A stretch of DNA of 37,983 nucleotides from Acutalibacteraceae bacterium (GTDB lineage: Bacteria > Bacillota > Clostridia > Oscillospirales > Acutalibacteraceae), in assembly GCA_036310785.1 (NCBI GenBank), contig JAXJRE010000289.1, positions 1 to 37,983 of the forward strand, read 5' to 3'. The notes under the pieces were generated by a model, which searched no databases, had not been told where the DNA came from, and was given only the letters and a program-made list of their open reading frames with translations. The translations under genes and the position numbers were made by a program. Within the stretch, counting starts at the first letter, position 1; each line of letters opens with the position of its first letter. Below are positions 2,864-29,383 of this stretch, piece after piece.

Positions 2864-3694
2864 ATGGCTGTTTGTCCTAAATGCGGCAGAAAACTTAAAC
2901 TCACCGATATCAAGCCGACTTGTCCGGGCTGCGGTGTTAATTTGCTTTATTACAAGATTGAAGAAAGACTTGAGGTTGACGCTATCAACGCTGAGCTGGA
3001 GCACGCAAAAACTCAGAAAAGAGTTGACCGTGCCAAGGATGCGATTTTCGGAACACCTCTTGCAATAGTCAGAATGGTGCTTCTTGTGCTCGTTGTCGGA
3101 ATGTTCTTTGTTCCGCTTGCAACGTTCCATGCGGTAGGCCCTTATTTTGACAATACTTCAACTTTGAACGCACTTGAGATTTACAATGCTGTTTCTTCGA
3201 TCGACTTTGACGGTATGATGGTGCTTGCAGGCTCTCCCGTACTTAAATCAAGTATGATGTTCCTTGCAATCTCCGGTGTAACAATCATTGTTTCCGTGTT
3301 CTGCGCTCTGCTTGAGCTGATCTTCAGCTTCCTTTCAAGCTCGCCTCACGGTTTTTCGAGAAACATTATCTTAGCTTCTCTCGGAATCGTATCCGCAGTT
3401 GCTTCTCTCATTACATACAACAAGTTCCTTGCAAGTATTCAGGAGGCTCTCGGCGGACTTGTAACAGGCTCTGTTAAGGTCGGTATTTACCTTGTTATTG
3501 CGGCATTTGTGCTTTGCATTGTTATTAACATTATCATCAAGGTAAAGAAATCTCCCGTTAAGTACACCCAGTCATATGTTGACAGCGTTCCCTATGAGGA
3601 GTTTGTCGAGCACTTCGGTGACAAGAAGTACGATATGGCGTCTCTTGAGGCAATCAAGGATGAAATGCAGAAGTACAAGGTTGTGGAGGAATAA
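2864..3694 (+). CDS. Membrane protein with an N-terminal zinc ribbon (CPKCG...CPGCG); function unknown
   Basis: Two CxxC pairs lie in the first 25 aa, followed by about 5 hydrophobic helices and an acidic C-terminal tail. Confidence 0.6.
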   Translation: MAVCPKCGRKLKLTDIKPTCPGCGVNLLYYKIEERLEVDAINAELEHAKTQKRVDRAKDAIFGTPLAIVRMVLLVLVVGMFFVPLATFHAVGPYFDNTSTLNALEIYNAVSSIDFDGMMVLAGSPVLKSSMMFLAISGVTIIVSVFCALLELIFSFLSSSPHGFSRNIILASLGIVSAVASLITYNKFLASIQEALGGLVTGSVKVGIYLVIAAFVLCIVINIIIKVKKSPVKYTQSYVDSVPYEEFVEHFGDKKYDMASLEAIKDEMQKYKVVEE

Positions 3695-5723: not shown

Positions 5724-5816
5724 TTATTTTATATGCAAAATGAATGTTCCGTCAGGGGTATATCGATAAATGCAATACCGATATGAGAAAGAGGCAATTC
5801 CCAAAACGAGAAAACT

Positions 5817-5834
5817 TTGATAAAATAATAACAA
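5817..5834 (+). promoter_or_regulatory. Candidate Rex operator TTGATAA-AATA-ATAACAA overlapping a TG-extended -10 (TAAAAT, 5821-5826)
   Basis: It matches 12 of 14 positions of the clostridial Rex consensus TTGTTAA-N4-TTAACAA. It lies 37 nt upstream of the rex start. Confidence 0.5.
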
Positions 5835-5870
5835 TCAAAGGAACGGAATGCGTTCACGGGAGGTGTCATC

Positions 5871-6485
5871 TTGAAAGAGACGGAGATATCACGGCCGGCA
5901 CTCGGCAGGATACCGATGTATCTGAGGTTTCTCAAAGGTCTGCCGCCGAGTATGCAGAATATTTCCTCGACGGTGATCGCCAAGGAGCTGGGACTCGGAG
6001 AGGTTCAGGTGCGAAAGGATCTCGGTGCTCTGTGCGGTTCGGGCAAACCGAAAGTCGGATATCAGCGCAGTGAGCTTATTGAAAGCCTGCAAACCTTTAT
6101 GACGGGCGAAAAGGTAAACGCAGTCATCGTCGGTGCAGGCAGGCTCGGAAAGGCTCTGCTTGATTACACCGGGTTTGAGGATTTCGGTATTTCGGTGCTC
6201 TCGGCTTTTGACGAGAAAATCCATGAGGACAACCTGTCCGAGGGAGGAAAACCGATATTGCCGATGACGGAATTTTCCGAATTTTGCAGTAAAAACAATG
6301 TCGGAATCGGAATTATCGCCGTCCCGTCGGAGGTCGCTCAGTCGGTGTGCAACATTCTCTATGAGAACGGTATTCGCCTGATGTGGTGCTTTGCACCGTG
6401 TCAGCTTTATAAGCCGGCAGACGCAGTTATACAGTATGAAAACCTTGCGCTGTCGCTTGCACATTTGAAAATGCAGATAAAATAA
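5871..6485 (+). CDS. rex: Redox-sensing transcriptional repressor Rex
   Basis: A winged-helix N-terminus (RIPMYLRFL, ISSTVIAKELG) plus a Rossmann GAGRLG motif. It has a TTG start with GGGAGG upstream. Confidence 0.9.
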   Translation: MKETEISRPALGRIPMYLRFLKGLPPSMQNISSTVIAKELGLGEVQVRKDLGALCGSGKPKVGYQRSELIESLQTFMTGEKVNAVIVGAGRLGKALLDYTGFEDFGISVLSAFDEKIHEDNLSEGGKPILPMTEFSEFCSKNNVGIGIIAVPSEVAQSVCNILYENGIRLMWCFAPCQLYKPADAVIQYENLALSLAHLKMQIK

Positions 6486-6514
6486 TCAGTAATTAGAAAC
6501 CGGGAGGTTAAGAT

Positions 6515-9232
6515 ATGGAAACAACAGAAAGAAAAATCGTGGACAGTGTAGAGGCGCTTGAGGAAGCTCTTGTGCGTGTCAGGGAAGCTCAGAAGAAGTT
6601 TTCCGCCTACACTCAGGAACAGGTAGACAAAATCTTCTTTGCTGCGGCTTCGGCGGCAAACAAGGCAAGAATCCCTCTTGCAAAGCAGGCAGTTGCCGAG
6701 ACAGGCATGGGCGTTGTTGAGGACAAGGTTATAAAGAACAACTACGCTTCGGAGTATATTTACAACGCTTACAAGGACACCAAGACCTGCGGAGTTATCG
6801 AGGAGGACAAGGCTTTCGGACTGAAAAAGATCGCTGAGCCTATCGGCGTTATCGCCGCTGTTATCCCGACAACAAACCCGACTTCAACGGCAATATTTAA
6901 GTGCCTTATCGCTCTTAAAACCCGTAATGCTATCGTCATCAGCCCTCACCCGAGAGCAAAGCAGTCAACTATCGAGGCCGCAAGAATTGTTCTTGAAGCC
7001 GCAGTTAAGGCAGGCGCACCCGAGGGAATTATCGACTGGATCGACATTCCGAGCCTTGAGATGACAAACCTTGTTATGAAAGAGGCCGATATCATCCTCG
7101 CAACAGGCGGCCCCGGAATGGTTAAGGCGGCATACTCATCGGGCAAGCCGGCACTCGGCGTTGGCGCAGGTAACACTCCTGCAATCATTGACGAGACAGC
7201 GGACATCGTTCTTGCCGTCAGCTCGATCATTCACTCAAAGACCTTTGATAACGGTATGATCTGCGCTTCGGAGCAGTCGGTTATCGTTCATCAGAATATA
7301 TATGACGCAGTTAAGGCTGAGTTTACGGACAGAGGCTGTTACTTCCTCAATCCCGAGGAGACCGAAAAGGTCAGAAAGACTATCATCATCAACGGTGCTC
7401 TCAATGCAAAGATCGTAGGTCAGCCTGCCGCTAAGATCGCCGCACTTGCAGGCGTAACCGTTCCGTCAGGAACAAAGATCATCATCGGCGAGGTTGAAAG
7501 CGTGGATATCAGCGAGGAATTTGCTCACGAGAAGCTTTCTCCCGTCCTTGCAATGTATAAGGCGACCGACATTCACGACGCTTTCAGCAAGGCTGAACAG
7601 CTTATCGCAGACGGCGGCTACGGTCACACATCATCTATCTATCTCAACGAGGTTACGGAGACCGAAAAGCTCAACGAGTTCGTTGAGAGAATGAAGACCT
7701 GCCGTATCCTTGTCAACACTCCCTCCTCTCACGGCGGTATCGGAGATCTTTACAACTTCAAGCTTGCTCCGTCGCTCACACTCGGCTGCGGCTCATGGGG
7801 CGGCAACAGCGTCAGCGAAAACGTAGGCGTAAAGCATCTTATCAATATCAAGTCCGTAGCGGAAAGGAGACAGAATATGTTGTGGTTCAGAGCGCCTGAA
7901 AAGGTATATATCAAGAAGGGCTGTCTTCCCGTTGCACTTGACGAGCTCAAGCACGTTATGGGCAAGAAGAGAGCGTTCATTGTAACGGACAGCTTCCTTT
8001 ATCATAACGGCTACACAAAGCCGATCACAGACAAGCTTGACGAGATGGGCATCGTTCACACAACGTTCTTCAACGTTGCTCCCGATCCGACACTTGCAAG
8101 CGCAAAAGAGGGCGCAGAGCAGATGAAGGCATTCCAGCCCGACTGCATTATCGCACTCGGCGGCGGCTCGGCAATGGACGCCGGCAAGATCATGTGGGTG
8201 CTTTACGAGCATCCGGAAGCAGACTTTATGGATATGGCAATGCGCTTCATTGATATCCGTAAGCGTGTTTACACCTTCCCGAAGATGGGCGAGAAGGCAT
8301 ACTTCATCGCAATTCCGACTTCGGCAGGTACGGGCTCGGAGGTTACTCCGTTCGCAGTTATCACGGACGAAAAGACAGGCGTTAAGTATCCGCTTGCCGA
8401 CTATCAGCTTCTGCCGAATATGGCTATCATCGACACGGACTTCCATATGAGCGCACCCAAGGGACTTACAGCCGCTTCAGGTATCGACGCTGTAACCCAC
8501 GCTCTTGAGGCTTACGCTTCAATGATGGCAACGGATTACACCGACGGTCTTGCTCTCAAAGCTCTCAAGACAATATTTGAATATCTGCCCCGTGCATACG
8601 ATAACGGTCAGACCGATATCGAGGCTCGTGAGAAGATGGCAAACGCCGCAACAATGGCAGGTATGGCATTCGCAAACGCATTCCTCGGCGTATGTCACTC
8701 AATGGCTCATAAGCTCGGCGCATTCCACCACCTGCCGCATGGCGTTGCAAACGCTCTGATGATTGAAGAGGTTCTTCGCTTCAACGCTTCCGAGGCTCCT
8801 GCAAAGATGGGTACGTTCTCACAGTACGATCATCCGCACACCCTTGCACGTTACGCTGAGGTTGCCGAGTATCTCGGCTTCGGCGGAAAGAACGACAAGG
8901 AAAGCCTTGAAAACCTTATTGCAGGTATCAATGCTCTCAAGGAGAAAGTTGGAATTAAGGCAACGATCCGTGACTACGGCATTGACGAGAAGGACTTCCT
9001 TGTCCGACTTGACGATATGGTTGAGCAGGCATTTGACGATCAGTGCACAGGTGCTAACCCCCGTTATCCGCTCATGAGCGAGATCAAGCAGATGTATCTC
9101 AACGCCTACTACGGCGACAAGCATTTTACCGAAGAAGAGAAACCCACATCAGCCGATTTTGCGGCGGAAAGCGACAAGCACGACTTTAAGAAAGCCTATC
9201 GCAGAGCCGAAAACGGCAAGAGCAAAGCATAA
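6515..9232 (+). CDS. adhE: Bifunctional acetaldehyde-CoA/alcohol dehydrogenase AdhE
   Basis: A 905-aa fusion of an ALDH domain and an iron-ADH domain (GGGSAMDAGK and His-rich metal site motifs). It carries a ~35-aa charged C-terminal tail beyond the usual end. Confidence 0.95.
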   Translation: METTERKIVDSVEALEEALVRVREAQKKFSAYTQEQVDKIFFAAASAANKARIPLAKQAVAETGMGVVEDKVIKNNYASEYIYNAYKDTKTCGVIEEDKAFGLKKIAEPIGVIAAVIPTTNPTSTAIFKCLIALKTRNAIVISPHPRAKQSTIEAARIVLEAAVKAGAPEGIIDWIDIPSLEMTNLVMKEADIILATGGPGMVKAAYSSGKPALGVGAGNTPAIIDETADIVLAVSSIIHSKTFDNGMICASEQSVIVHQNIYDAVKAEFTDRGCYFLNPEETEKVRKTIIINGALNAKIVGQPAAKIAALAGVTVPSGTKIIIGEVESVDISEEFAHEKLSPVLAMYKATDIHDAFSKAEQLIADGGYGHTSSIYLNEVTETEKLNEFVERMKTCRILVNTPSSHGGIGDLYNFKLAPSLTLGCGSWGGNSVSENVGVKHLINIKSVAERRQNMLWFRAPEKVYIKKGCLPVALDELKHVMGKKRAFIVTDSFLYHNGYTKPITDKLDEMGIVHTTFFNVAPDPTLASAKEGAEQMKAFQPDCIIALGGGSAMDAGKIMWVLYEHPEADFMDMAMRFIDIRKRVYTFPKMGEKAYFIAIPTSAGTGSEVTPFAVITDEKTGVKYPLADYQLLPNMAIIDTDFHMSAPKGLTAASGIDAVTHALEAYASMMATDYTDGLALKALKTIFEYLPRAYDNGQTDIEAREKMANAATMAGMAFANAFLGVCHSMAHKLGAFHHLPHGVANALMIEEVLRFNASEAPAKMGTFSQYDHPHTLARYAEVAEYLGFGGKNDKESLENLIAGINALKEKVGIKATIRDYGIDEKDFLVRLDDMVEQAFDDQCTGANPRYPLMSEIKQMYLNAYYGDKHFTEEEKPTSADFAAESDKHDFKKAYRRAENGKSKA

Positions 9233-9246
9233 AGGAGGACGAAACT

Positions 9247-9996
9247 ATGAATTTAGACAGAATTATTGCGGTCAGAACCGACAAAACCGTTTACCGTGAC
9301 GGCGATCGCTGTCTCAAGGTCTTCAACGAGGATTATTCCAAGGCGGACGTTCTCAACGAGGCTCTCAATCAGGCTCGTATCGAGGAGACGGGACTTAATA
9401 TCCCGAAGATCCTTGAGGTCACCGTCATCGACGGCAAGTGGACAATCGTATCCGAGTTCATCAAGGGCAAGACTCTTGCCAGACTGATGGAAGAAAATCC
9501 CGACAAGAAAGACGAGTATCTCAGCCTTTTCGTCGATCTCCAGCTTCAGATGCACAGCAAGACCTGCAAGGGACTTACAAAGCTCAAGGACAAGATGAAC
9601 AGAAAGATCAGCGAGACCGACCTTTCGGCAACCGTTCGTTACGACCTCCACACACGTCTTGAGGCTATGCCCAAGCACAACAAGGTTTGCCACGGCGATT
9701 TCAACCCGACAAACATTATCATCACGGACGACGGCACACCGTATATCCTTGACTGGTCGCACGCAACTCAGGGCAACGCTTCCGCAGACGTTGCAAGAAC
9801 CTATCTTCTTTTCTGGCTCAACGGCGATATCGACGGAGCAAAGAAATACCTTGATATGTTCTGCGAGAGAAGCAACACGGCAAAGCAGTATGTTCAGAAG
9901 TGGATGCCGATCGTAGCGGCCTCCCAGACGGTTAAGGGCAACGAGGCGGAGCGTGAGTTCCTGCACTCCTGGATCGACGTTGTCGATTACGAATAA
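9247..9996 (+). CDS. APH/choline-kinase-fold phosphotransferase (putative protein kinase of the HydS module)
   Basis: Brenner-type catalytic loop HGDFNPTN, the following ILDWSHA, and the Lys in CLKVF. It lies 14 nt after adhE and has a GGAGG RBS. Confidence 0.7.
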   Translation: MNLDRIIAVRTDKTVYRDGDRCLKVFNEDYSKADVLNEALNQARIEETGLNIPKILEVTVIDGKWTIVSEFIKGKTLARLMEENPDKKDEYLSLFVDLQLQMHSKTCKGLTKLKDKMNRKISETDLSATVRYDLHTRLEAMPKHNKVCHGDFNPTNIIITDDGTPYILDWSHATQGNASADVARTYLLFWLNGDIDGAKKYLDMFCERSNTAKQYVQKWMPIVAASQTVKGNEAEREFLHSWIDVVDYE

Positions 9997-10016
9997 TTTA
10001 TAAACAGATCAGTTCA

Positions 10017-10060
10017 GCGGCGTATTTCCCGGCAAAAAAATAGGCAGAGAAATACACCGC
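10017..10060 (+). other. Imperfect RNA hairpin in the kinase-ferredoxin intergenic gap, with no U-tract
   Basis: The arms GCGGCGTATTTC / GAAATACACCGC pair at 11 of 12 positions with a 20-nt loop. It is not followed by a T-run. Confidence 0.35.
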
Positions 10061-10106
10061 CTACTGTTCAACGGATAAAAAGTATAAAAAATAGGAGGAT
10101 TATTCA

Positions 10107-10346
10107 ATGAAGATCACAGTATGTATCGGCTCATCCTGCCACATCAAAGGCTCAAGACAGGTTGTAGAGCAGCTCCAGTATCTCATCCATGAGAACAATC
10201 TCGGCGACAAGGTCGAGCTTGGCGGAACCTTCTGCATGGGCAAGTGCCAGCAGGGCGTTTGCGTCACGGTTGACGACAAGTTTTTCTCAGTTTCACCCGA
10301 GACCGTAAAGGAATTCTTTAACGAGAACGTTCTTGCAAAGGTGTGA
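10107..10346 (+). CDS. Thioredoxin-like [2Fe-2S] ferredoxin (NuoE/HydC-like small protein), copy 1
   Basis: CIGSSC (Cx4C) plus FCMGKC (Cx3C) provide four Cys ligands. A GGAGG RBS is present. Confidence 0.75.
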   Translation: MKITVCIGSSCHIKGSRQVVEQLQYLIHENNLGDKVELGGTFCMGKCQQGVCVTVDDKFFSVSPETVKEFFNENVLAKV

Positions 10347-10351
10347 AAAAT

Positions 10352-10612
10352 ATGATCGTTCAGATTTGTGTAGGTTCTTCCTGCCATTTGAAAGGGTCTG
10401 AAAAATTGGTTGAGCTTTTCCAAAAGGCTATAGCCGACAACAAGCTTGATGATGAGGTTACACTTGCCGGCAGCTTCTGCACCGGCAAGTGCAATCGCGT
10501 AGGTGTGACCGTGACGGTGGACGACGATGTCTTTACCGGAGTTACGCCTGAAAATTTCAGCGGCTTTTTCAATGACAAGGTACTTAATAAAATAAACGAA
10601 GAAAGGAAATAA
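10352..10612 (+). CDS. Thioredoxin-like [2Fe-2S] ferredoxin, copy 2 (paralogue of copy 1)
   Basis: CVGSSC plus FCTGKC. I chose ATG 10352 because MIVQICVGSSCH aligns with MKITVCIGSSCH of copy 1 and AAGGTG lies 8 nt upstream. The alternative is GTG 10343. Confidence 0.75.
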   Translation: MIVQICVGSSCHLKGSEKLVELFQKAIADNKLDDEVTLAGSFCTGKCNRVGVTVTVDDDVFTGVTPENFSGFFNDKVLNKINEERK

Positions 10613-10616
10613 CGGT

Positions 10617-12290
10617 ATGGAATGTCTGACTCTGAAAAAATCCAACTGTAAAAACTGTTACAAGTGTATTCGTCACTGTCCGGTCAAATCCATCCGTTTT
10701 TCCGGCAATCAGGCATATATCATCGGCAACGAGTGCATAATGTGCGGTCAGTGCTTCGTAGTCTGTCCGCAGGACGCAAAGCAGATCGTTGACGAGACCG
10801 AAAAGGTCAAGGTGCTTTTGCAGAGCGGCGATCCCGTTGTTGTCAGCCTTGCTCCGTCATTTGTTGCAAACTATGAGGGTGTTGGCATCGGAGCAATGAG
10901 AGAGGCTCTTAAACAGCTCGGTTTTTACGATGTTGAAGAAACGGCGATCGGCGCAACGATCGTTAAAAAGGAATATGAAAGAATGGTAGGGGAGAAGACG
11001 CACGACATAATCATCTCCTCCTGTTGTCATTCTATTAACCTGCTTATACAGAAGTATTTCCCGGCAGAGCTGCCCTACCTTGCCGATGTTCTTTCACCGA
11101 TGCAGGCGCACTGCAGGGACATCAAGAACAGGATGCCGAACGCAAAGACCGTATTTATCGGCCCCTGCGTTGCGAAGAAGGACGAGGCTCAGTATTATGA
11201 GGGCATAGTTGACGCCGTTCTCACCTTTGACGAGCTGACAAACTGGCTCAAGTCTCAGAATATCGAGCTGAAGCAGGAAATGGATCACGACGAAAACACC
11301 CGTGCAAGGTTCTTCCCGACAACGGGCGGTATTCTCAAGACGATGGAAACCGACGATCCCGACTACACCTATATGGCGATTGACGGAACGGAAAACTGCA
11401 TTGCCGCCCTGCGTGAAATTGAAAACGGCAAGCTTCACAGATGCTTTATCGAGATGTCCGCCTGCGTAGGAAGCTGTGTCGGCGGTCCAGTTATGGAAAA
11501 ATTCCACCGCTCTCCCGTTAAGGATTATGTTGCGGTGTCGAAATTCGCAGGCAAAAACGACTTCCCGGTTGAGGAAGCCGATCCCGTTACCGTCAGGAAG
11601 AATTTTACGTTTATCGAAAGAAAGCTGCAGCAACCGTCCGAGACGGAGATTCGCGACACTCTGCGTCAGATGGGCAAGATGAAGCCCTCCGACGAGCTGA
11701 ACTGCGGTTCCTGCGGCTACAATACCTGCCGTGAAAAGGCGATCGCAATTCTCCAGGGCAAGGCGGAGATTTCAATGTGCTTGCCGTACCTCAAGGATAA
11801 GGCTGAGAGCTTCTCCGACACGATCGTCAGGAACACTCCGAACGGACTTATTGTTCTCAACGAAAAGTTAGAGGTTCAGCAGATCAATCAGGCGGCGCTG
11901 AAGATAATCAACGTCCGCAACGCTTCGGTAATTCTCGGCGATCAGGTCGTCAGAATACTTGATCCGACCGATTTCCTCAGCGTTCTCAATTCGGGCAAGA
12001 GTATTCACAACAAGAGAACCTACCTTGCGGAGTATGAAAAATATGTCGAGGAGTCCATTCTCTACGATAAGGAATACCGTCTGCTTGTTTGTATTCTGCG
12101 TGATGTTACCGAGGAAGAAAATCAGCGTGAGAAGAAAGAAAAGATCAGCCACCAGACCGTTGAAATTGCCGACCGAGTTGTTGACAATCAGATGAGAATT
12201 GTTCAGGAGATTGCATCGCTTCTCGGTGAAACTGCGGCTGAAACAAAAATTGCGCTTACTAAATTAAAGGAGTCGATCAGCGATGAATAA
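10617..12290 (+). CDS. hydS: Sensor-type [FeFe]-hydrogenase homologue (HydS, group C-like): two [4Fe-4S] motifs, an H-domain, a Cx2Cx4Cx16C motif and a PAS domain
   Basis: It has two CxxCxxCxxxCP motifs. The H-cluster motifs are altered: SSCCH, FIGPCVAKKDE and EMSACVGSCVGGP. CGSCGYNTC-x16-C follows, then a PAS-like C-terminus. Confidence 0.8.
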   Translation: MECLTLKKSNCKNCYKCIRHCPVKSIRFSGNQAYIIGNECIMCGQCFVVCPQDAKQIVDETEKVKVLLQSGDPVVVSLAPSFVANYEGVGIGAMREALKQLGFYDVEETAIGATIVKKEYERMVGEKTHDIIISSCCHSINLLIQKYFPAELPYLADVLSPMQAHCRDIKNRMPNAKTVFIGPCVAKKDEAQYYEGIVDAVLTFDELTNWLKSQNIELKQEMDHDENTRARFFPTTGGILKTMETDDPDYTYMAIDGTENCIAALREIENGKLHRCFIEMSACVGSCVGGPVMEKFHRSPVKDYVAVSKFAGKNDFPVEEADPVTVRKNFTFIERKLQQPSETEIRDTLRQMGKMKPSDELNCGSCGYNTCREKAIAILQGKAEISMCLPYLKDKAESFSDTIVRNTPNGLIVLNEKLEVQQINQAALKIINVRNASVILGDQVVRILDPTDFLSVLNSGKSIHNKRTYLAEYEKYVEESILYDKEYRLLVCILRDVTEEENQREKKEKISHQTVEIADRVVDNQMRIVQEIASLLGETAAETKIALTKLKESISDE

Positions 12291-13455
12291 TCTGTGTGCT
12301 GACATCGGCTGGAAAAGTATAAATCACGAGGGCGAACAGCTCTGCGGCGACCATGTGGATATTGTCGAGCAGAGCGAAAACTCCACCGTTATCGTGCTTG
12401 CGGACGGTCTCGGAAGCGGAGTAAAGGCGAGTATTCTTTCAACTCTCACTTCCAAGATTATTTCAACGATGATGGCTGAGGGACTTTCGCTTGAGGAGTG
12501 TGTTTCCACCATTGCCGCAACGCTTCCGATCTGTTCGGTCAGGGGAGTGGCTTACTCCACCTTTACGATCATTCACCTGATAAATAATGAGACAGCCGAA
12601 CTCATCCAGTACGACAATCCTCACGTTATACTTCTGCGCAACGGCAAGAACTATGACTATCCCAAAAATGAGCTGAATATTAACGGCAAGCAGATTTATA
12701 AGTCCGTTATCAGCCTGCAGGAAAACGATATTTTCATCGCCATGAGCGACGGTTGTCCTCATGCCGGAATAGGTCTTGCCTACAACTTCGGCTGGAAGCG
12801 TGACGATATAATCGACTTTATGGAGACCTTTGCCGATATCGGATATACGGCGAAAACTCTTTCGACCATGCTAATTGACGAGTGTAACAAGCAGTACGGC
12901 TTTCATCCCGGTGACGATGCGACAGCCTGCGTTGTCCGTATCAGAAAGAGAGAGCCGATGAACCTGCTCTTCGGTCCTCCGAGAAACAGGGACGACTGCG
13001 ACAGAATGATGTCGCTGTTCTTCTCCAAGGAGGGCAAGCACATTGTCTGCGGCGGAACGACCTCATCGATCGCCGCAAAGTACCTCGGCAAGCCGATTAG
13101 GGCGACGCTCAACTTTGAGCAGAGCGACGTGCCTCCGATAGCCGAGATTGAGGGAGTCGATCTCGTCACCGAGGGTGTTATCACGATCAACAAGGTTATC
13201 GAATATGCAAGAGACGCCCTTGACAAAAATGAGCTTTACGATCAGTGGAGCATCAAGCAGGACGGAGCTTCAAAGATATGCCGTCTGCTGTTTGAGGAAG
13301 CTACGGATATCAACTTCTATGTCGGCAGGGCGGTCAATCCCGCTCATCAGAATCCCGATCTGCCGATCAACTTTAACATCAAAATGAATCTTGTCGAGGA
13401 GCTTTCGGACTGTCTGAAGCAGATGGGCAAGAGAATAAAGGTAAGCTATTTTTAA
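12283..13455 (+). CDS. PP2C/SpoIIE-family Ser/Thr protein phosphatase with an uncharacterised ~170-aa C-terminal domain
   Basis: PPM motifs GDHVD, ADGLGSGVKAS, SDG and DDATA. It overlaps the hydS stop by 8 nt. Confidence 0.8.
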   Translation: MNNLCADIGWKSINHEGEQLCGDHVDIVEQSENSTVIVLADGLGSGVKASILSTLTSKIISTMMAEGLSLEECVSTIAATLPICSVRGVAYSTFTIIHLINNETAELIQYDNPHVILLRNGKNYDYPKNELNINGKQIYKSVISLQENDIFIAMSDGCPHAGIGLAYNFGWKRDDIIDFMETFADIGYTAKTLSTMLIDECNKQYGFHPGDDATACVVRIRKREPMNLLFGPPRNRDDCDRMMSLFFSKEGKHIVCGGTTSSIAAKYLGKPIRATLNFEQSDVPPIAEIEGVDLVTEGVITINKVIEYARDALDKNELYDQWSIKQDGASKICRLLFEEATDINFYVGRAVNPAHQNPDLPINFNIKMNLVEELSDCLKQMGKRIKVSYF

Positions 13456-13510
13456 TCCCCGTCTGTCAAGACGGTGCATTGATTGACACGGTTACCAAAG
13501 GAGGAAGAAA

Positions 13511-14938
13511 ATGCTATATAAATTTGACACAAAGGTACAGTATCTTAAATATAAAGTTCTCCGTGAAGTAGCCCGCCATGCGTGGAACGACACCTTGCTG
13601 GACAATATTCTTGAAATTCCCAAGACTATTGTTCCCGGCAACACACCGACAATGAGATGCTGTGTTTATAAGGAACGTGCAATTCTCGGAGAGCGTGTTA
13701 AGCTTGCAATGGGCGGAGACAAGACAAATCCGAATGTTATCGAGGTTATCGAAACCGCCTGTGACGAGTGCCCTATGGGCGGATACGAGGTAACGAATGC
13801 GTGCAGAGGCTGTCTTGCACACCGCTGTATGGACGCCTGTCGTTTCGGAGCTATCACGTTCGACAGCAACCACGTTGCACATATCGACAAAAATCTCTGC
13901 AAGGAGTGCGGTGCCTGTTCGAGAGTTTGTCCCTATACCGCTATCATCAGCCGTAAGCGCCCCTGCGAGAACGCCTGCAAGATCAAGGCTATCTCAATGA
14001 ACGAGAACAAGGCGGCAGCTATCAATAATGACAAGTGTATCGCCTGCGGTGCCTGTGTTTATCAGTGCCCGTTCGGCGCAATCACGGACAAATCCTTTAT
14101 CCTTGACGTTATCGACATCATCAAAAAGAGCGAGAACAATGCGAAGTACAAGGTTTATGCCGTTGTTGCTCCGACGATTTCGAGCCAGTTCAAGTATGCA
14201 AAGCTCGGTCAGGTCATAACGGGACTTAAAAAGCTCGGTTTCCATACCGTTATTGAAGCGGCTCTCGGAGCTGATATGGTTGCTTTTGCAGAGTCGAAAG
14301 AGCTTGCGGAAAAAGGATTTTTGACAAGCTCCTGCTGTCCTGCTTTTGTCAGCTATATTGAAAAATCCTTCCCTCAGCTTTTACCATATGTTTCGCACAA
14401 TCTTTCTCCTATGGGTGCAATATCAAAGTATATCAAGGATACTGAGGAAAATTGTAGGGTTATTTTCATCGGACCCTGCACGGCGAAGAAGGCCGAGGTT
14501 CAGAAAGACTCTGTTCGTCCGTATGTTGACGCCGCATTGACATTTGAGGAGCTTCAGGCTCTCTTTGACAGCCGTGATATTGATATCACAGAGCTTGAGG
14601 AGGGTATGCTTGACAACGCATCTTATTACGGAAGAATTTTCGCACGCTGCGGAGGACTTTCCGACGCTGTTGCCGAGGGTCTCAAGGAGCACGGTATAGA
14701 TGACTTTGAGCTTAATGCCTGTTCCTGCGACGGAATTGAGGCTTGCCGCACCGCCCTGCTCAAAAAGAGCAAGGATAAGCTTGACGCAAACTTCATCGAG
14801 GGTATGGCTTGTATCGGCGGCTGTATCGGCGGCGCAGGCTGTCTGACTCACGGTGAGAGAAACAAGGCGGAGGTTGACAAATACGGCAGAGAAGCCTACG
14901 AAAAGACCATTACCGACGCTATTTCGATGCTGAAATAA
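13511..14938 (+). CDS. hydA: Monomeric catalytic-type [FeFe]-hydrogenase (HydA2/group B-like) with a Cys-rich N-terminus and two ferredoxin-type [4Fe-4S] motifs
   Basis: H-cluster motifs TSSCCPAFV, FIGPCTAKKAE and EGMACIGGCIGGAG, plus CKECGACSRVCP and CIACGACVYQCP. A GGAGG RBS is present. Confidence 0.85.
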   Translation: MLYKFDTKVQYLKYKVLREVARHAWNDTLLDNILEIPKTIVPGNTPTMRCCVYKERAILGERVKLAMGGDKTNPNVIEVIETACDECPMGGYEVTNACRGCLAHRCMDACRFGAITFDSNHVAHIDKNLCKECGACSRVCPYTAIISRKRPCENACKIKAISMNENKAAAINNDKCIACGACVYQCPFGAITDKSFILDVIDIIKKSENNAKYKVYAVVAPTISSQFKYAKLGQVITGLKKLGFHTVIEAALGADMVAFAESKELAEKGFLTSSCCPAFVSYIEKSFPQLLPYVSHNLSPMGAISKYIKDTEENCRVIFIGPCTAKKAEVQKDSVRPYVDAALTFEELQALFDSRDIDITELEEGMLDNASYYGRIFARCGGLSDAVAEGLKEHGIDDFELNACSCDGIEACRTALLKKSKDKLDANFIEGMACIGGCIGGAGCLTHGERNKAEVDKYGREAYEKTITDAISMLK

Positions 14939-14954
14939 GTTACCGAAAAAAATA

Positions 14955-14983
14955 AATGGGACTGTTAGTGAGACAGTCCCATT
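14955..14983. terminator. Bidirectional intrinsic terminator between convergent hydA and the PLC-like gene
   Basis: An 11-bp perfect stem, AATGGGACTGT / ACAGTCCCATT, with a 7-nt loop. It has an A-run upstream and a T-rich run downstream. Confidence 0.75.
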
Positions 14984-14989
14984 ATTATT

Positions 14990-15892
14990 TTATGTACAGG
15001 TTTTAAGCCTGTTCTTATATTCCGTTCGCTTACTTTCGATGACGTTGTTCTTGTTCAGGTTCAGGTTGAGAATTTCCCTGACCTTGAAGAAGTCTTCCGT
15101 CATAAAGTCGCCTGCGATAATATTGGCTCTTGCAAGACATTTTGGCGTGTTGGCAATGGTATTTATCAAAGCCTTGAAATGCCAGCGCAGAGCCTTATCA
15201 AGCTTCCTCGGAAAGACAACGCCGATATCTGTGCCGAGATTAGGTGTCTGCTGAGTCTGAAACCAGTAAAAGCCGTTCGTGTCGTTCGTGTCGAAGAAAT
15301 CCGTTGCCTCGGTGACGAACTCAAAAGCGTGCTTGCCGTGACGCTTCTTTTCCCACGGGAGAATGTGCGGACAGTTTACGCTGTATTTGTATTCCTCGCA
15401 GTAGTTTATCATAATAAACCGTTTGCCAGATTTTCTCATATCGCCCATTGTGACATCACCGATGTTGTCAAAATCGGTGAAGGCATATTTGGACGGCTCA
15501 AGACATCTTTCGAGAATTTCATCAACCTTTTTCGGATCGGCATGGAAGTTCAGCTCGATCGGGCCGAAACGCTGAGGCTGATATTCCCTGATATCAAGAA
15601 TGAAAAATTCGGACGGGTGCTCGTCTATGACCTTGCGGAATTTCATCAGCTCCGGCTCAAAGGGCAAGCCCTTTGTTATTCCGTGGCAGAAAACGATCTG
15701 ACCGTTTTTATCCGTGTCAAGTCTGACGCAGAAATGACGGATACCGTATTCAAACTGCTGAACGAGGTCACCGTCCTGACAGCAGGCAATGGGCTTCATC
15801 TTGAAGCTTCCTGCGTTGTGTGCGCTGGGCATTACGACATTGCAAAGCTTTACATCATCCTTGATGTAGGACATCCATTCGGAGTAAATCAT
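14990..15892 (-). CDS. PI-PLC X-domain-like phosphodiesterase, with no signal peptide
   Basis: EWM...MPSAHNAGS...GIRHFCVRLD...FCHG...HPSEFFILDIRE parallels the bacterial PI-PLC pattern W..IPGTHDSG..GIR..D.R..HHG..HP.E.I...K.E. Confidence 0.55.
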   Translation of the reverse strand: MIYSEWMSYIKDDVKLCNVVMPSAHNAGSFKMKPIACCQDGDLVQQFEYGIRHFCVRLDTDKNGQIVFCHGITKGLPFEPELMKFRKVIDEHPSEFFILDIREYQPQRFGPIELNFHADPKKVDEILERCLEPSKYAFTDFDNIGDVTMGDMRKSGKRFIMINYCEEYKYSVNCPHILPWEKKRHGKHAFEFVTEATDFFDTNDTNGFYWFQTQQTPNLGTDIGVVFPRKLDKALRWHFKALINTIANTPKCLARANIIAGDFMTEDFFKVREILNLNLNKNNVIESKRTEYKNRLKTCT

Positions 15893-20618: not shown

Positions 20619-21554
20619 ATGAATTTACTGCATATGAAATATGCCGTTGAAATCGCTGAAACAAAATCCATCAACAAGACCGCCGAAAAGCTTTTTGTCG
20701 GTCAGTCGGCACTGAGCCGTGCTATCAAGGAGCTTGAAGCGAGTCTCGGCGTGACATTGTTTGAACGAAGCGCAAAGGGTATGTTTCTTACCCCGGACGG
20801 CGAGGTATTCGTCCGCTATGCAAAAAATGTTCTCAAACAGGTTGATGTTATTGAAAATATGTTCAGCGAGGGGAATGCCGCAAAAAAGCAGTTTTCTGTC
20901 TCCGTGCCGAGGGCGAGCTATATTGCAGATGCCTTTGCTCAGTTTTCCAAACTGATTGAAGATGGGACTGAGGCGGAGCTTTTCTATAAGGAAACCAACG
21001 CAATGCGTGCCATAAAAAATATACTGAACGATGAATTTAAACTCGGAATAATCCGCTATGCGGAAAGCTATGACAAGTATTATAAGGAAATGATGGACGA
21101 AAAAGGGCTTGAATATGAGCTGATAACCGAGTTCAGATATATGCTTCTTATGAACAGGGAAAGTCCTCTTGCGAAAAAGGAAAAGATAACCTATGAGGAT
21201 CTGAGAGAGCTTGTCATGATAGCTCATGCCGATCCCTATGTACCGTCACTTCCGCTTGCTCAGGTCAAGAAAGAGGAGCTTCCCGACAACTCGGACAGGA
21301 AGATTTTTATTTTTGAGAGGGCGAGTCAGTTTGAACTGCTTGCCGAGAATCATGACACCTTTATGTGGTCGTCACCGATTCCTCAATCGCTCCTTGACCG
21401 CTACGGACTTGTTCAGCGTTACTGTGACGAAAACAAGCGCATGTATAAGGATATCCTGATACACCGCCGTGACTATACTCTTTCCGAGCTTGACAATATG
21501 TTTGTCAGCGAGCTTGTGAAAGCGAAAAGAAGAACTATGGGGGAGGAAACCTGA
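20619..21554 (+). CDS. LysR-family transcriptional regulator
   Basis: N-terminal HTH region MNLLHMKYAVEIAETKSINKTAEKLFVGQSALSRAIKELE. ATG 20619 is preceded by GGAGG. Confidence 0.85.
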   Translation: MNLLHMKYAVEIAETKSINKTAEKLFVGQSALSRAIKELEASLGVTLFERSAKGMFLTPDGEVFVRYAKNVLKQVDVIENMFSEGNAAKKQFSVSVPRASYIADAFAQFSKLIEDGTEAELFYKETNAMRAIKNILNDEFKLGIIRYAESYDKYYKEMMDEKGLEYELITEFRYMLLMNRESPLAKKEKITYEDLRELVMIAHADPYVPSLPLAQVKKEELPDNSDRKIFIFERASQFELLAENHDTFMWSSPIPQSLLDRYGLVQRYCDENKRMYKDILIHRRDYTLSELDNMFVSELVKAKRRTMGEET

Positions 21555-21555
21555 A

Positions 21556-22098
21556 ATGAAATGGCTGATAGCGTCCGATATTCACGGCAGTGCGTACTGG
21601 TGCCGCCGTCTGCTTGAAAAATATGCAGAGGAAAAGGCGGACAGGCTGATCCTGCTCGGCGACGTTCTTTATCACGGACCGAGGAACGACCTGCCCGATG
21701 AGTATGCGCCGAAAAAAGTTATCGAAATGCTCAACGGTATGAGCGACAGCATTCTTTGCGTCAGGGGAAACTGTGACACCGAGGTGGATCAGATGGTGCT
21801 GAATTTCCCCGTGCTTGCGGACTATGCTCTGCTTGACCTCGGCGAAAGAATGATTTATCTTACGCACGGACATATTTACAATGAGAACAACCTGCCTCCG
21901 CTTCGTGAGGGCGACATTCTTCTCCACGGACATACCCATGTTTCGAAATGTGTCGATCACGGGAAATATGTATATATGAATCCCGGCTCGGTTTCAATAC
22001 CAAAGGAGAACACACCACACGGATATATGACGCTTGAAAACGGAACATTTCTTTGGAAATCGCTTGACGGAGAAAAAATCAGGGCATATACATTATAA
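21556..22098 (+). CDS. yfcE: YfcE-type metallophosphoesterase (MJ0936 family phosphodiesterase)
   Basis: DIHGS, LGDVLYHGPRN, VRGNCD, THGH and GHTH motifs are collinear with E. coli YfcE. Confidence 0.85.
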   Translation: MKWLIASDIHGSAYWCRRLLEKYAEEKADRLILLGDVLYHGPRNDLPDEYAPKKVIEMLNGMSDSILCVRGNCDTEVDQMVLNFPVLADYALLDLGERMIYLTHGHIYNENNLPPLREGDILLHGHTHVSKCVDHGKYVYMNPGSVSIPKENTPHGYMTLENGTFLWKSLDGEKIRAYTL

Positions 22099-24248: not shown

Positions 24249-24361
24249 GTCTTTTTGAAAAAATTCACAATTTGATAATATTTTCCTTAAATACTGTCTC
24301 AAAAGTCTTTACCCGAAGTAAATATAGTGCTAAAATGATATAAGAAAAGGCAGGTGTTCAA

Positions 24362-25135
24362 ATGAATTTCGGTGTTTCCTCCTCGTGCTTCTATCCGTCG
24401 CTGATTGAGGAGTCGTTGAAATCGGTCGGCAGATCGGGTGCAAAAACTGCGGAGATCTTTTTTAACTCCCTCTCAGAGCTGAGCGGAGATGTTTTTAATG
24501 AGCTTTGCAGAATCAAGGAATACTATAATATAGAGGTGCGCTCTATCCACCCTTTCACCTCGGCGTTTGAGCCGATTATGTTCTTCAGCGGCTATGAAAG
24601 ACGGACGAACGACAGCGTTGAATTTTACAAGCATTACTTCGACGCCGCAAACCGTCTCGGCGCAGAGCTTGTTGTTCTGCACGGAGGTAAGCTCAGAAAA
24701 GGCTACACACCTGAAATATATGCCGAAAGCTATTTCAAATTGCATACCGCCGCAAGAAAAGAGGGCGTTTTTATTGCCCACGAAAACGTCAACAACTGCC
24801 TTTGTTCCGATCCCGAATATATGAAGCGTGTCGCCGATCTGATCGGTGATGAGTTTCGTGCCGTGCTTGATGTCAAGCAATGCCGCAGGTCGGGACAGAA
24901 TGAATTTCAATTCATCGAGCTTCTCGGGGATAAAATTGCTCAGGTTCATCTGAGTGACGGAACAGCGGAGATGGACTGTCTTGCTCCGGGCAAGGGTGAA
25001 TATGACTTTAAAAAGCTTTTTGACGCATTAAAAGCTCACGGATATGACAAGACTGCCGTCATTGAGCTTTACCGTGACAATTTCGGAAAAGAGGAAGAAA
25101 TAAAGCAGGCGCTTGAATATTTAAAATCGTTATAA
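24362..25135 (+). CDS. Sugar phosphate isomerase/epimerase (xylose-isomerase-like TIM barrel)
   Basis: The size and pattern (VLHGG, HENV and HLSD metal-ligand-like motifs) are typical of AP-endonuclease-2/XylA-like TIM barrels. Confidence 0.6.
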   Translation: MNFGVSSSCFYPSLIEESLKSVGRSGAKTAEIFFNSLSELSGDVFNELCRIKEYYNIEVRSIHPFTSAFEPIMFFSGYERRTNDSVEFYKHYFDAANRLGAELVVLHGGKLRKGYTPEIYAESYFKLHTAARKEGVFIAHENVNNCLCSDPEYMKRVADLIGDEFRAVLDVKQCRRSGQNEFQFIELLGDKIAQVHLSDGTAEMDCLAPGKGEYDFKKLFDALKAHGYDKTAVIELYRDNFGKEEEIKQALEYLKSL

Positions 25136-28600: not shown

Positions 28601-29383
28601 TGCAAGGGCTATTGCTCTGTCTGTATATTTCTCGGAAAAGCTGTCCAGATATTCGGAATAATTCATCTTCACGAAAAGCTCGTTGATTTTATCTGTCGCA
28701 AAATCCGATTTCAGAACATAGATACATGAATCAAGGCTTCCCGATCCGAGCTTCGTCTGACCTTTGTCGGCAGAGATGTACTCGGGAGAAGCAACGATTC
28801 CCACGATTGCGAATTTATTGTTTTTAAGGCTGATTCCCGAGCTTCCGTCGGTTTCGGAAATGTTGAAAACCTTGCCGATCTCAATGTCGGGATAAAGCTC
28901 GGCGGATTTTTCGTCAACAACACATTCTCCGCTTTTTTCGGGAAGTCTGCCTTCTTTGAGGTCAAGTCGGTTTATATATGTGGGATCCTCCTCGCCGTCC
29001 AGAAATTTCTGCGCCTTATCGGCGTCAATCAGGCTTATTCGGCAGGTAAGCTCCGTACCGTTTTTGTTGACGAAGGCTTCCTTGCCCAGGGCGGCATAAC
29101 CGTCAACATAGCACGATCCCACAACCTGTGAAACCATTTCAACATTTGCTATCCTTTTGATATCTTCGTCTGAAAACGGAATCGGCGAAGTGACATGAAC
29201 ATCCATAAGATTGTTATTGACAAAAAATTCATTCGCCTCGTATTGCATCGCAGGCGAAGCCGATTTTATTCCGACAAAGAAGCTCATTCCAAGCGCAACG
29301 ATAACGGCGATTGAAAGAAATCTGAGCTTGTTTGCGGTAATGGAACGAAGAGTATCTTTAATGAGAGCTTTTGTCATTACCAC
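25616..29383 (-). CDS. Fused double FtsX/MacB-type ABC permease (1255 aa) with a ~440-aa coiled-coil insert in the first extracytoplasmic domain
   Basis: An N-terminal TM is followed by a MacB-like periplasmic domain, a long heptad-rich Ser/Lys/Glu/Asn/Gln segment (nt ~27300-28620), an FtsX 3-TM bundle, a second extracytoplasmic domain and a second FtsX bundle. The start may be GTG 29383 or ATG 29377. Confidence 0.8.
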   Translation of the reverse strand: MVMTKALIKDTLRSITANKLRFLSIAVIVALGMSFFVGIKSASPAMQYEANEFFVNNNLMDVHVTSPIPFSDEDIKRIANVEMVSQVVGSCYVDGYAALGKEAFVNKNGTELTCRISLIDADKAQKFLDGEEDPTYINRLDLKEGRLPEKSGECVVDEKSAELYPDIEIGKVFNISETDGSSGISLKNNKFAIVGIVASPEYISADKGQTKLGSGSLDSCIYVLKSDFATDKINELFVKMNYSEYLDSFSEKYTDRAIALAEEINKVSEAAIDSKLSDLKTEYNNKIEDKKSEIIEYTLLSDTQLKEKEASIKEFKQYVDNEDKILQALKEENEDKVKSASSTLSSLEKQLTNLNSSYESHVKLRDSQSSEIKGYSELKKLYDDLNAKHTADKANLDALEGTYQKKKSELDSKNKEISEREQKISDYQSKIEKLTSEISELERTISSLNTKISEQNEKIKTQNALISSINSDIQKQNAIINGEYTNAEKLAAISEKTKLNNDLTVAQTELTSRNNELKNLQSQLSSAQSSKTKKESKKSQASSSLSSERTALATAKSQREVLQTEFKNAETNYNSAKKSYDADSATLSKYMTSMNELTKGQSSLTKLIAQTEAEQKELESLKIRVTEAQISYTLASRNSSVAIEKAEYDLKVAKSRYDTVDDEYTQLKNEIEGKLQTLNNDLKSYETTLGNLTNLRWTATPRNSFAGIDSFSVSLENIKSVAKFFPMVFFITAMLACFVIMVKNVEEERKEIGLFKAFGYSNSAIIGKFLIYAILAWTIGAFIGAVMGTCVLPFVVCSIYNETYSVPNVGTVFLSEYVFFGIALSFVMTVAAAVFAVLKELRNDSATLMRPQNINYNRRNLLEKIPALWGKMSYGMVIVARTISRSRERVFIGTLGIACCTALILSSLGLINSTTAVSGAQYNEDGIFKYDIMFVLKTPQQEDTQILKDIREDQRTENAALFSKRSAYAAAENKDTAAKRSVNVISVKNSEEFPNYVNIEVTDGDFDLSYGSAVITDKMADDLGISVGDNVWLTSSDSAPKYAIVSGIVKNYTNHYVYMAEDTYSEVFGAEPQYKYIIVSTKSYVEKKDIENLASTFLKEDIVTGASTASDMAGSVDVSIGRILSVVMLFVISACLLAMIVMYTNSNVNLSERTREIANIKVIGLSDHEVLIYVIRENIISTVLGTVIGLIAGIFLHSVLMGFISVDNIVYGSSISWWSYIVTIAIIVLISLISALPIRFKIDRIDMAQTLKEIE

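Follow-up and report, generated by a model that had tools for sequence, protein, structure and literature searches.

The stretch of DNA analysed here (the window) comprises 37,983 nucleotides (nt) from an Acutalibacteraceae bacterium (contig JAXJRE010000289.1) and carries on its forward strand an eight-gene cluster with a putative H2-sensing hydrogenase and a phosphatase at its heart. The first gene, rex (5871-6485; 204 amino acids, aa), has a TTG start with GGGAGGTG 6 nt upstream. It is followed by adhE (6515-9232, 905 aa), which encodes a bifunctional acetaldehyde-CoA/alcohol dehydrogenase, and by the gene for a phosphotransferase of the APH/eukaryotic-like-kinase fold (9247-9996, 249 aa, PF01636), denoted the kinase. 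Two thioredoxin-like [2Fe-2S] ferredoxins (both PF01257) come next, the HfsA-like fdx1 (10107-10346, 79 aa) and fdx2 (10352-10612, 86 aa); the mechanical open reading frame (ORF) of fdx2 begins with GTG at 10343, and the ATG at 10352 was used instead. hydS (10617-12290, 557 aa) encodes the putative H2-sensing [FeFe]-hydrogenase, which has the M2f/group C architecture and resembles HfsB. The gene of an HfsC-like phosphatase of the SpoIIE/RsbU-type PP2C family (12283-13455) overlaps hydS; residues 1-223 of its product are the PP2C domain and residues 224-390 a C-terminal alpha/beta domain. The last gene, hydA (13511-14938, 475 aa, TIGR04105), specifies a monomeric, ferredoxin-dependent [FeFe]-hydrogenase of group B, similar to HydA2 and HfsD. 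An earlier note on this DNA had listed the same eight genes with their identities, coordinates and spacing, and all of this was reproduced by our ORF map and by curated models (gaps of 29, 14, 110, 5, 4, -8 and 55 nt). The strong bidirectional terminator that it had placed at 14955 is likewise present (14955-14983, 12-bp stem with 5 GC pairs, T runs on both strands); it closes the operon and is common to the cluster and the convergent ORF 14990-15892.

That the eight genes are one tightly packed co-directional unit with a single conserved control region and a strong terminator is strongly supported; from these same features we infer that they are co-transcribed in this genome. The top-scoring promoter-like match (13483-13512, TTGACA-18-GAAAAT) was rejected as a hydA promoter because its -10 element overlaps the hydA start codon.

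The cluster has a known counterpart. A near-identity search against plasmids gave no match, and a DNA search in distant mode retrieved plasmid pRUMAL01 of Ruminococcus albus 7 (98% coverage, 70% identity). There, Rumal_3400-3407 match the window cluster gene for gene, in order and in orientation, and share with it the upstream palindrome and the hydS/PP2C overlap. The encoded proteins are 70-78% identical to those of the window (AdhE 76%, kinase 74%, HydA versus HydA2 75%), with the exception of Rex (46% to Rumal_3400). The two loci also differ in other ways. The R. albus cluster resides on a megaplasmid, whereas that of the window is chromosomal (recA, groEL, fba, guaA and purA flanks); a LysR-type regulator gene is adjacent in R. 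albus but lies 5.7 kb away in the window; and the Rex-like box on the -10 element of the window has no comparable counterpart within 300 nt upstream of R. albus rex (best site, 5 mismatches). In the co-culture transcriptome of R. albus 7, these genes, which Greening et al. (2019) call a 'putative eight-gene cluster', showed the largest fold change: with the H2 consumer Wolinella, Rumal_3400-3407 changed by -130, -121, -114, -109, -107, -122, -101 and -90-fold, respectively (their supplementary table), and H2 sensing by HydS was proposed. Zheng et al. (2014), as quoted by others, propose that HydS senses H2 and signals via its PAS domain to the neighbouring kinase and phosphatase. The cluster and the H2-sensing hypothesis are thus already published, and the window holds a chromosomal orthologue, a further member of a known system from an abundant uncultured gut lineage (Acutalibacteraceae, Oscillospiraceae or Ruminococcaceae, depending on the source) and no new system. 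What the earlier note said of the literature, namely that the R. albus cluster is co-regulated and that hfs mutations alter ethanol yield, agrees with the papers.

Species-representative genomes were scanned with a three-sequence PP2C alignment as query. This yielded 80 loci (given as L-numbers below) with a PP2C identity of 82-95%, onto which the eight window proteins were mapped; gene content was read from the 53 informative loci, which extend 4.7 kb or more upstream of hydS. Fdx1 is present in all 53, Fdx2 in 49, the kinase in 45, AdhE in 30 and Rex in 26. The full eight-gene form accounts for 19 loci, followed by Kin-Fdx-... (10), AdhE-Kin-... (9) and Rex-Kin-... (5). Since R. albus 7 and dozens of species share the gene arrangement, it is far beyond chance. 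hydS and the PP2C gene share an 8-nt overlap (12283-12290 in the window) in 77 of 78 loci, and HydA follows PP2C in 64 of 69. More distant relatives retain less: a 34%-identical PP2C (L083) is found alongside HydS alone, again with the 8-nt overlap, a 43%-identical one sits in a Rex-Fdx-HydS-PP2C-HydA cluster, and the Monoglobus cluster is Fdx-HydS-PP2C-HydA. In L083 and in 5 of the 69 close loci, neither HydA nor a ferredoxin is found next to HydS-PP2C. HydS-PP2C is the invariant core, and AdhE, Rex and the kinase are frequent but dispensable. The cluster is therefore not fixed, nor is it the self-contained module that the earlier note had inferred. Persistence of the 8-nt overlap at 34-43% protein identity argues for translational coupling, and HydS and PP2C are probably made at fixed stoichiometry.

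The rex product is a redox-sensing (NADH/NAD+) transcriptional repressor, as judged from its family match (NF003994, 198 bits versus a cut-off of 130) and its winged-helix and Rossmann NAD(H) domains (PF06971 and PF02629). The VRKDL motif of the recognition helix is invariant in 34 cluster-encoded Rex proteins, and GAGRLG is also conserved. Cluster-encoded Rex diverges much faster than its neighbours (43-85% identity among species, versus 82-95% for PP2C and 83-93% for AdhE). AdhE matches NF010378 (1393 bits versus 951).

HydS combines a hydrogenase core with features of the sensory class. Its H domain matches Fe_hyd_lg_C with 172 bits, and where solved hydrogenases have TSCCP, MPCxxKxxE and ExMACxxGC, HydS has the aligned H-cluster motifs SSCCH, GPCVAKKDE and EMSACVGSCVGG. 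The N-terminus carries two [4Fe-4S] motifs, CKNCYKCIRHCP...CIMCGQCFVVCP, with Fer4-family matches to residues 7-54. A C-terminal Cx2Cx4Cx16C motif (CGSCGYNTCREKAIAILQGKAEISMC; PF04060, 42 bits) is kept in the orthologues and is followed by a PAS-like region. In an alignment to 8a6t and to CpI-type motifs, M353 and M497 of CpI are replaced by G and S, and the proton-path positions E279, R286 and S319 by K, G and A. Hydrogenase classes were assigned by domain architecture, motifs and the cut-offs of NCBIfam hidden Markov models, a classification that the earlier note had proposed. HydS scores below the cut-offs of the catalytic groups (TIGR02512, group A, 98.6 versus 406; TIGR04105, B1, 201 versus 450) and fits a group C/M2f putative sensory [FeFe]-hydrogenase, in line with the sensor-type assignment first made for it. 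Group D (M2e) is probably excluded, by the PAS domain that separates group C/M2f from it. A close described counterpart is HydS of Thermotoga maritima (TmHydS), the group C prototype, which shares the two N-terminal [4Fe-4S] motifs, the H domain, Cx2Cx4Cx16C and probably PAS, as well as G and S at the M353 and M497 positions. At the C299 position, however, the window protein has Cys and TmHydS Ala, and the overlapping PP2C gene that follows hydS in the window is a further difference from the prototype. HydDB subgroup C3 is known as 'phosphatase-linked'.

Both ferredoxins match PF01257 (34.1 bits for fdx1 and 35.5 bits for fdx2, cut-off 24.8). HydA falls inside TIGR04105, the 'FeFe_hydrog_B1' (monomeric) model (565.5 bits versus 450, residues 5-447), with intact SSCCPA, GPCTAKKAE and EGMACxGGCIGG (EGMACIGGCIGG) motifs. 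The naming of this enzyme is inconsistent, since Greening et al. (2019) call R. albus Rumal_3407 group A1 and the NCBIfam model puts both proteins in B1.

The phosphatase matches PF07228 (SpoIIE) with 52 bits (cut-off 25). Many metagenomic contigs carry identical or near-identical copies, and a first search for homologues yielded nothing below 95% identity; diversity was obtained from a search of representatives, in which the HfsC-type family spans 2090 representative clusters at an expectation value (E) of 1e-3 or better. An AlphaFold2 model built with 95 diverse homologues is confident (predicted local distance difference test score 93, predicted template-modelling (TM) score 0.91), and Foldseek matches residues 1-223 to SpoIIE (5mqh, E 7e-15) and 3pu9 (E 2e-14). 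Of the metal-binding aspartates, D23, D41 and D212 do not vary among the 95 homologues, down to 31% identity, and D156 and D211 hardly do; the two-domain architecture of about 390 residues is kept down to about 34% identity. The C-terminal domain (residues 224-390, encoded by 12952-13455) is predicted as a compact, conserved alpha/beta unit, also modelled with confidence, with the motifs GPP...CGGTTS...DLVTEG...NPAHQ and a conserved GGTT(S/A) loop. It has no Pfam match, no significant profile match in the PDB (best, a SIS-domain protein, E 0.07) and no significant Foldseek match (best, methylglyoxal synthase, E 0.034, TM score 0.4-0.5). A hidden STAS domain was considered for this region and rejected, as no significant STAS match was found. 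That the domain binds a ligand would be speculation. By Pfam and fold, the PP2C belongs to the same subfamily as the partner-switching phosphatases SpoIIE, RsbU and RsbP, in which, as proposed for the PP2C of the window, the phosphatase is governed by a sensor domain or partner. It differs from them in the company it keeps: as the earlier note had stated, no STAS protein and no HATPase-type anti-sigma kinase is found among the eight cluster proteins (Pfam, NCBIfam), and the kinase is APH-fold. The larger ORFs on either side, scanned with Pfam at more stringent thresholds, also gave no STAS or HATPase_c match. The C-terminal domain 224-390 has no counterpart in SpoIIE, RsbU or RsbP.

Upstream of rex, the control region comprises three elements. 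The first, which was absent from the earlier note, is a palindromic, operator-like element, PAL (TATATCGATAAATGCAATACCGATAT, 5759-5784, forward strand), an inverted repeat with arms at 5760-5768 and 5776-5784. It is unique in the window at 0 mismatches and is centred about 61 nt ahead of the point where transcription is predicted to start. The second, found by the promoter scan, is a conserved AATTCCCAAA box (5796-5805, forward strand) that contains a -35-like hexamer, TTCCCA (5798-5803). It occurs at a constant 37-nt offset from PAL in many species and, with at most 1 mismatch, at 18 of 30 rex-first loci versus 1.4% in shuffles. The third is the Rex-box-like palindrome TTGATAAAATAATAACAA (5817-5834, forward strand), which has 2 mismatches to the clostridial Rex consensus TTGTTAANNNNTTAACAA and overlaps an extended -10 element, TGaTAAAAT (5818-5826). 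Rex boxes with up to 3 mismatches number 3 in the window versus 2.6 expected, and TTGATAAAATAATAACAA alone is not significant. With at most 2 mismatches, however, a Rex box is present at the same position in 9 of 10 adhE-first and 5 of 30 rex-first clusters, the window's lineage among the latter, compared with 0.6% of shuffles. The reported Rex-box-like palindrome on the promoter -10 is thus present here and is kept in close relatives and in adhE-first clusters, but not in most rex-first ones. The gene of a xylose-isomerase-like TIM-barrel protein (ORF 24362-25135) has a further Rex-box-like sequence about 92 nt ahead of it (TTTTGAAAAAATTCACAA, 24253-24270, 3 mismatches), which is within chance expectation.

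For the strict form of the palindrome, ATCGATA-N7-TATCGAT (at most 1 mismatch), 25 sites exist in 1.37 Mb of loci. Twenty of them are located 95-136 nt upstream of rex, R. albus 7 included. The other five comprise two before adhE (one locus), one before ldh, one before an Fe-alcohol dehydrogenase gene and one in L067, 287 nt upstream of rex. In L030 (950-970) the palindrome lies about 75 nt upstream of an L-lactate/malate dehydrogenase-like gene and in L041 (2210-2230) about 113 nt upstream of the Fe-alcohol dehydrogenase gene; these two sites hint at a small regulon of electron-sink genes. The palindrome is also seen in L001 (3563-3583) and in 20 other loci, and hexamers are doubled or tripled at 15-nt spacing in L033, L036, L041, L053 and L063. 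A relaxed form (TATATC-N9-AWTAC-N3-TAT, at most 2 mismatches), found in about 1% of shuffled sequences, is carried by 21 of the 30 rex-first clusters and by 6 of the 10 adhE-first ones. Among kinase-first clusters it occurs in 4 of 8 with an adjacent LysR gene and in 1 of 12 without one, and it is absent from all 11 Fdx-first clusters.

A probable LysR-type transcriptional regulator (LTTR) is encoded in the window at 20619-21554 (forward strand; PF00126, HTH_1, 70.8 bits), with a probable ATG start at 20619 preceded by GGAGG. No LysR_substrate match was obtained at E of 1e-4 or better; NCBIfam LTTR models align to residues 7-210 below their cut-offs, and the nearest named relatives, CidR, GltC, AlsR and CcpC, are all below cut-off as well. 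An orthologue of the regulator ahead of the R. albus cluster, the protein shares 58% identity with R. albus RUMAL_RS17345 and 68% with the regulator of L041. In about 38 of the 62 loci with enough upstream sequence, such an orthologue (39-69% identical) immediately precedes the cluster in the same orientation, independent of which cluster gene comes first. In L034 and L045 the gap between LysR and the kinase gene is 29-40 nt, so that LysR is probably co-transcribed there. An Fe-alcohol dehydrogenase gene is placed between LysR and the cluster in two loci. In the window, LysR is followed by the gene for a YfcE-family metallophosphoesterase (21556-22098, forward strand; NF006988, 227 bits versus 117), and the pair is divergent from recA; the same LysR-YfcE phosphodiesterase pair stands directly upstream of the cluster in L010 and L046, and L042, L070 and L059 have gaps of matching size. 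The earlier view that the cluster has no DNA-binding output other than Rex is therefore correct inside 5817-14938 and does not extend to the family, in which LysR adjoins the cluster at the loci just counted and in R. albus 7. The R. albus gene upstream of the cluster, Rumal_3399, is absent from the part of the co-culture differential-expression table that was covered, as might be expected of a regulator made constitutively. No relevant paper linking a LysR regulator to the cluster turned up in the library searched, which is weak evidence.

Three further described systems share parts of this arrangement. In Thermoanaerobacterium saccharolyticum and related thermophiles, hfsABCD, the acknowledged counterpart of the Fdx-HydS-PP2C-HydA core, encodes a ferredoxin-like HfsA, a PAS-containing [FeFe]-hydrogenase HfsB, a PP2C HfsC and a hydrogenase HfsD; homology with the window rests on the statement of those papers that HfsB and HfsD correspond to R. 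albus HydS and HydA2. Unlike the window cluster, the hfs operon as described has four genes and lacks rex, adhE and the APH-fold kinase (Shaw 2009; Eminoglu 2017). The HoxBC-HoxJ-HoxA system of Cupriavidus/Ralstonia follows the same logic, in that a low-activity hydrogenase senses H2 and a phosphorylation switch controls hydrogenase expression, but its proteins are unrelated ([NiFe] sensor, histidine kinase and response regulator versus [FeFe] sensor, PP2C and APH-fold kinase). Clostridial Rex regulons (adhE, ldh and hydrogenase genes with TTGTTAANNNNTTAACAA boxes) likewise have a Rex box over the -10 of an adhE-containing operon; unlike in the regulons listed, rex is here the first gene of the regulated operon.

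Taken together, the region is very probably the orthologue of the R. albus 7 'high-H2 fermentation mode' operon, and we propose that it operates as follows. Transcription would begin a few nt past the extended -10 element (5818-5826). Rex bound on the -10 box would repress at low NADH/NAD+, allowing NADH-dependent derepression, and an activator, most likely the LysR-type regulator, would bind the palindrome near -61 and the AATTCCCAAA box at -35 and bring about the large induction. The H-cluster of HydS may bind or slowly oxidize H2 and exchange electrons with the two [2Fe-2S] ferredoxins. The state of HydS could then be passed via its C-terminal [4Fe-4S]/PAS/helical tail to the PP2C, which is predicted to be translationally coupled to HydS and is probably bound to it. 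The PP2C would remove a phosphate added by the APH-fold kinase or by a kinase encoded elsewhere, with HydA (as post-translational control), the LysR-type regulator and Rex as candidate phospho-targets. The net effect would be that high H2 together with high NADH switches on AdhE, as an ethanol sink, and a ferredoxin-only hydrogenase. The kinase-containing minimal form Kin-Fdx-Fdx-HydS-PP2C-HydA, often with LysR and without Rex or AdhE, limits the candidate targets in cis to HydA, the LysR-type regulator, HydS and PP2C; Rex or AdhE can serve as targets only in lineages that have them, and a phospho-target encoded elsewhere is possible.

A number of observations weigh against this proposal. The Rex box departs from the consensus at 2 positions, and only 5 of 30 rex-first clusters possess a full one; most rex-first variants have the ATCGATA-N7-TATCGAT palindrome instead. 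The strict, CG-core palindrome tracks the presence of rex and not LysR adjacency (12 of 20 versus 1 of 18 among LysR-adjacent loci), which leaves the identity of the binding protein uncertain, and the LysR gene of the window is not adjacent to the cluster but downstream of it, past a housekeeping block. The kinase is missing from 8 of the 53 informative loci, from Monoglobus and from more distant clusters, so the PP2C does not depend on the kinase in cis. APH-fold enzymes are often small-molecule kinases. The PAS region of the window HydS is below the Pfam cut-offs (PAS_9 19.9 versus 27, PAS_8 18.7 versus 21.8, PAS 16.5 versus 22.6); PAS passes in orthologues (R. albus, PAS 22.7; Monoglobus, PAS 23.4 and PAS_8 22.9), and the region after the C-terminal cluster of the window protein is probably a true PAS domain. 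HydS also retains the C299-equivalent Cys (SSCCH, both Cys of TSCCP) in 77 of 77 orthologues and could therefore be catalytically competent. This residue does not disqualify HydS from group C, because in published statistics 17% of sensory-group (group C) hydrogenases have Cys at that position. Finally, no phospho-relay step has been demonstrated in any organism in the literature up to papers of 2025-2026, in which the signalling path and the phospho-substrate are as undescribed as the earlier note had found them.

Which protein binds PAL can be approached from its geometry. The extra strict-palindrome sites precede typical Rex-regulon genes, which argues against LysR as the binder. Against Rex, the VRKDL recognition helix does not vary and the 4-N7-4 geometry is unlike that of Rex boxes. 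A 4-N7-4 dyad near -61 to -66 with a second contact near -35 is the classic layout of a LysR-type activator, as for CcpC at citB. Because PAL and the -35 box follow this pattern, a LysR-type regulator is favoured over Rex as the PAL-binding protein. A more comprehensive reading joins these elements: the LysR-type regulator (less likely Rex) would bind the palindrome at about -61 and activate the operon, HydS-controlled PP2C and the kinase would set its activity, and the C-terminal domain of the PP2C would add a metabolite input. We put this forward tentatively, as one possibility that on present evidence is improbable as a whole. If it is true, the palindromes upstream of the ldh and Fe-alcohol dehydrogenase genes would define a small H2-controlled 'electron-sink' regulon.

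The substrate of the kinase separates the proposed phosphorylation switch from a first alternative, in which the APH-fold protein is a small-molecule kinase whose product is a metabolite, a co-inducer of LysR or a ligand of the PP2C C-terminal domain, and the kinase partner of PP2C is encoded elsewhere. The active site is well preserved: K24, E38, N155 and D168 never vary among 60 orthologues, at least 90% of which also keep D150, with the loop HGDFNPTN at 148-155. Family matches fall into two groups, one of small-molecule kinases (APH, ChoK) and one of minimal protein kinases (RIO, Bud32, Pkinase). The best families are APH/ChoK-like (PF01636 APH, 53.7 bits versus 23.2), the matches to RIO1 and Pkinase are weaker, with Pkinase below its cut-off (21 versus 31.7 bits), and the closest solved relatives include choline kinase and antibiotic kinases (E 0.003 or weaker), all of which favours a small molecule; but RIO1 and Bud32-like matches are nearly as good, and APH-fold protein kinases exist. 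The many genomes with PP2C and no APH-fold kinase also speak for a small-molecule substrate, whereas the co-regulation of kinase and PP2C in R. albus and the adjacency of the kinase to the sensor core in 45 of 53 loci speak against it. Regulators of the LysR type usually take small ligands as their signal, and the C-terminal domain of the PP2C bears a weak likeness to alpha/beta folds that bind phosphate ligands (the methylglyoxal synthase and SIS matches given above), but these structural resemblances are not significant. On balance we regard a small-molecule kinase as unlikely.

A second alternative is that HydS is no sensor but a working subunit of an Hfs-type catalytic complex. Fdx1, Fdx2, HydS, PP2C and HydA would make up, or be part of, a single ferredoxin-linked hydrogenase system, PP2C with a kinase would tune the enzyme post-translationally, and effects on adhE would be indirect, via redox balance and Rex. 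Besides the conserved Cys pair in every HydS orthologue and the position of HydA after PP2C, the T. saccharolyticum data point in this direction: hfsABCD was identified as the main H2-evolving hydrogenase of that organism, and later work indicates that HfsABC may work without HfsD. Both adhE expression and ethanol yield rise when hfsA or hfsB is deleted, provided that hfsC and hfsD are present, and hydrogen cycling is the current explanation for the high ethanol yield of the hfsB mutant. For these reasons post-translational control of HydA is a serious alternative to a purely transcriptional output. A catalytic role for HydS is nevertheless at odds with its group C hallmarks (the C-terminal cluster, the probable PAS domain, M353G, M497S and the changes at E279, R286 and S319) and with the loci, L083 and five close ones, in which HydS-PP2C has neither HydA nor ferredoxin beside it. 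Moreover, transcript levels that change 100-fold, as in R. albus, require a transcriptional input. We therefore consider the catalytic complex unlikely.

That the adhE-rex and hydrogenase genes are mere neighbours, independently expressed from an internal promoter in the 110-nt gap between kinase and fdx1, is very improbable: Rex, AdhE and the kinase are variably present among species and the gap holds an imperfect hairpin (10019-10028, GGCGTATTTC, and 10049-10061, GAAATACaCCGCC, with a 20-nt loop), but the promoter scan found no promoter-like site there, most relatives have a spacer of 17-25 nt (R. albus, 17 nt), and all eight R. albus orthologues shift by the same approximately 100-fold. The spacer with its hairpin was likewise rejected as a regulatory element, since it is not conserved among relatives.

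The surroundings of the cluster are those of a chromosome, with housekeeping genes for a pfkB kinase, fba, a pgsA-like protein, a MiaB-like radical SAM protein, recX, recA, groEL, guaA and purA. The convergent ORF 14990-15892 on the reverse strand (300 aa) has no Pfam or NCBIfam match, and ORFs 1083-2042 and 2864-3694 have no Pfam match. A large FtsX/MacB-type permease (1255 aa) and an ABC ATPase are encoded on the reverse strand at 25616-30078 and bear no relation to the cluster. An Rfam search of the whole window returned zero RNA families.

What this analysis adds to the published system is its modular pattern with the HydS-PP2C core, the LysR(-YfcE) partner, the promoter architecture of palindrome, -35 box and Rex box, and the C-terminal domain of the PP2C. 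The H2 partial pressure sets whether gut and rumen fermenters form acetate and H2 or ethanol, a choice that feeds methanogenesis and shapes H2 cycling in the gut, and the hfs version of the cluster is an engineering target for ethanol yield. Many abundant uncultured Clostridia of human and animal guts have the cluster, and the LysR-type regulator, the palindrome and the PP2C C-terminal domain are concrete, testable candidates for the output of the putative [FeFe] H2 sensor.

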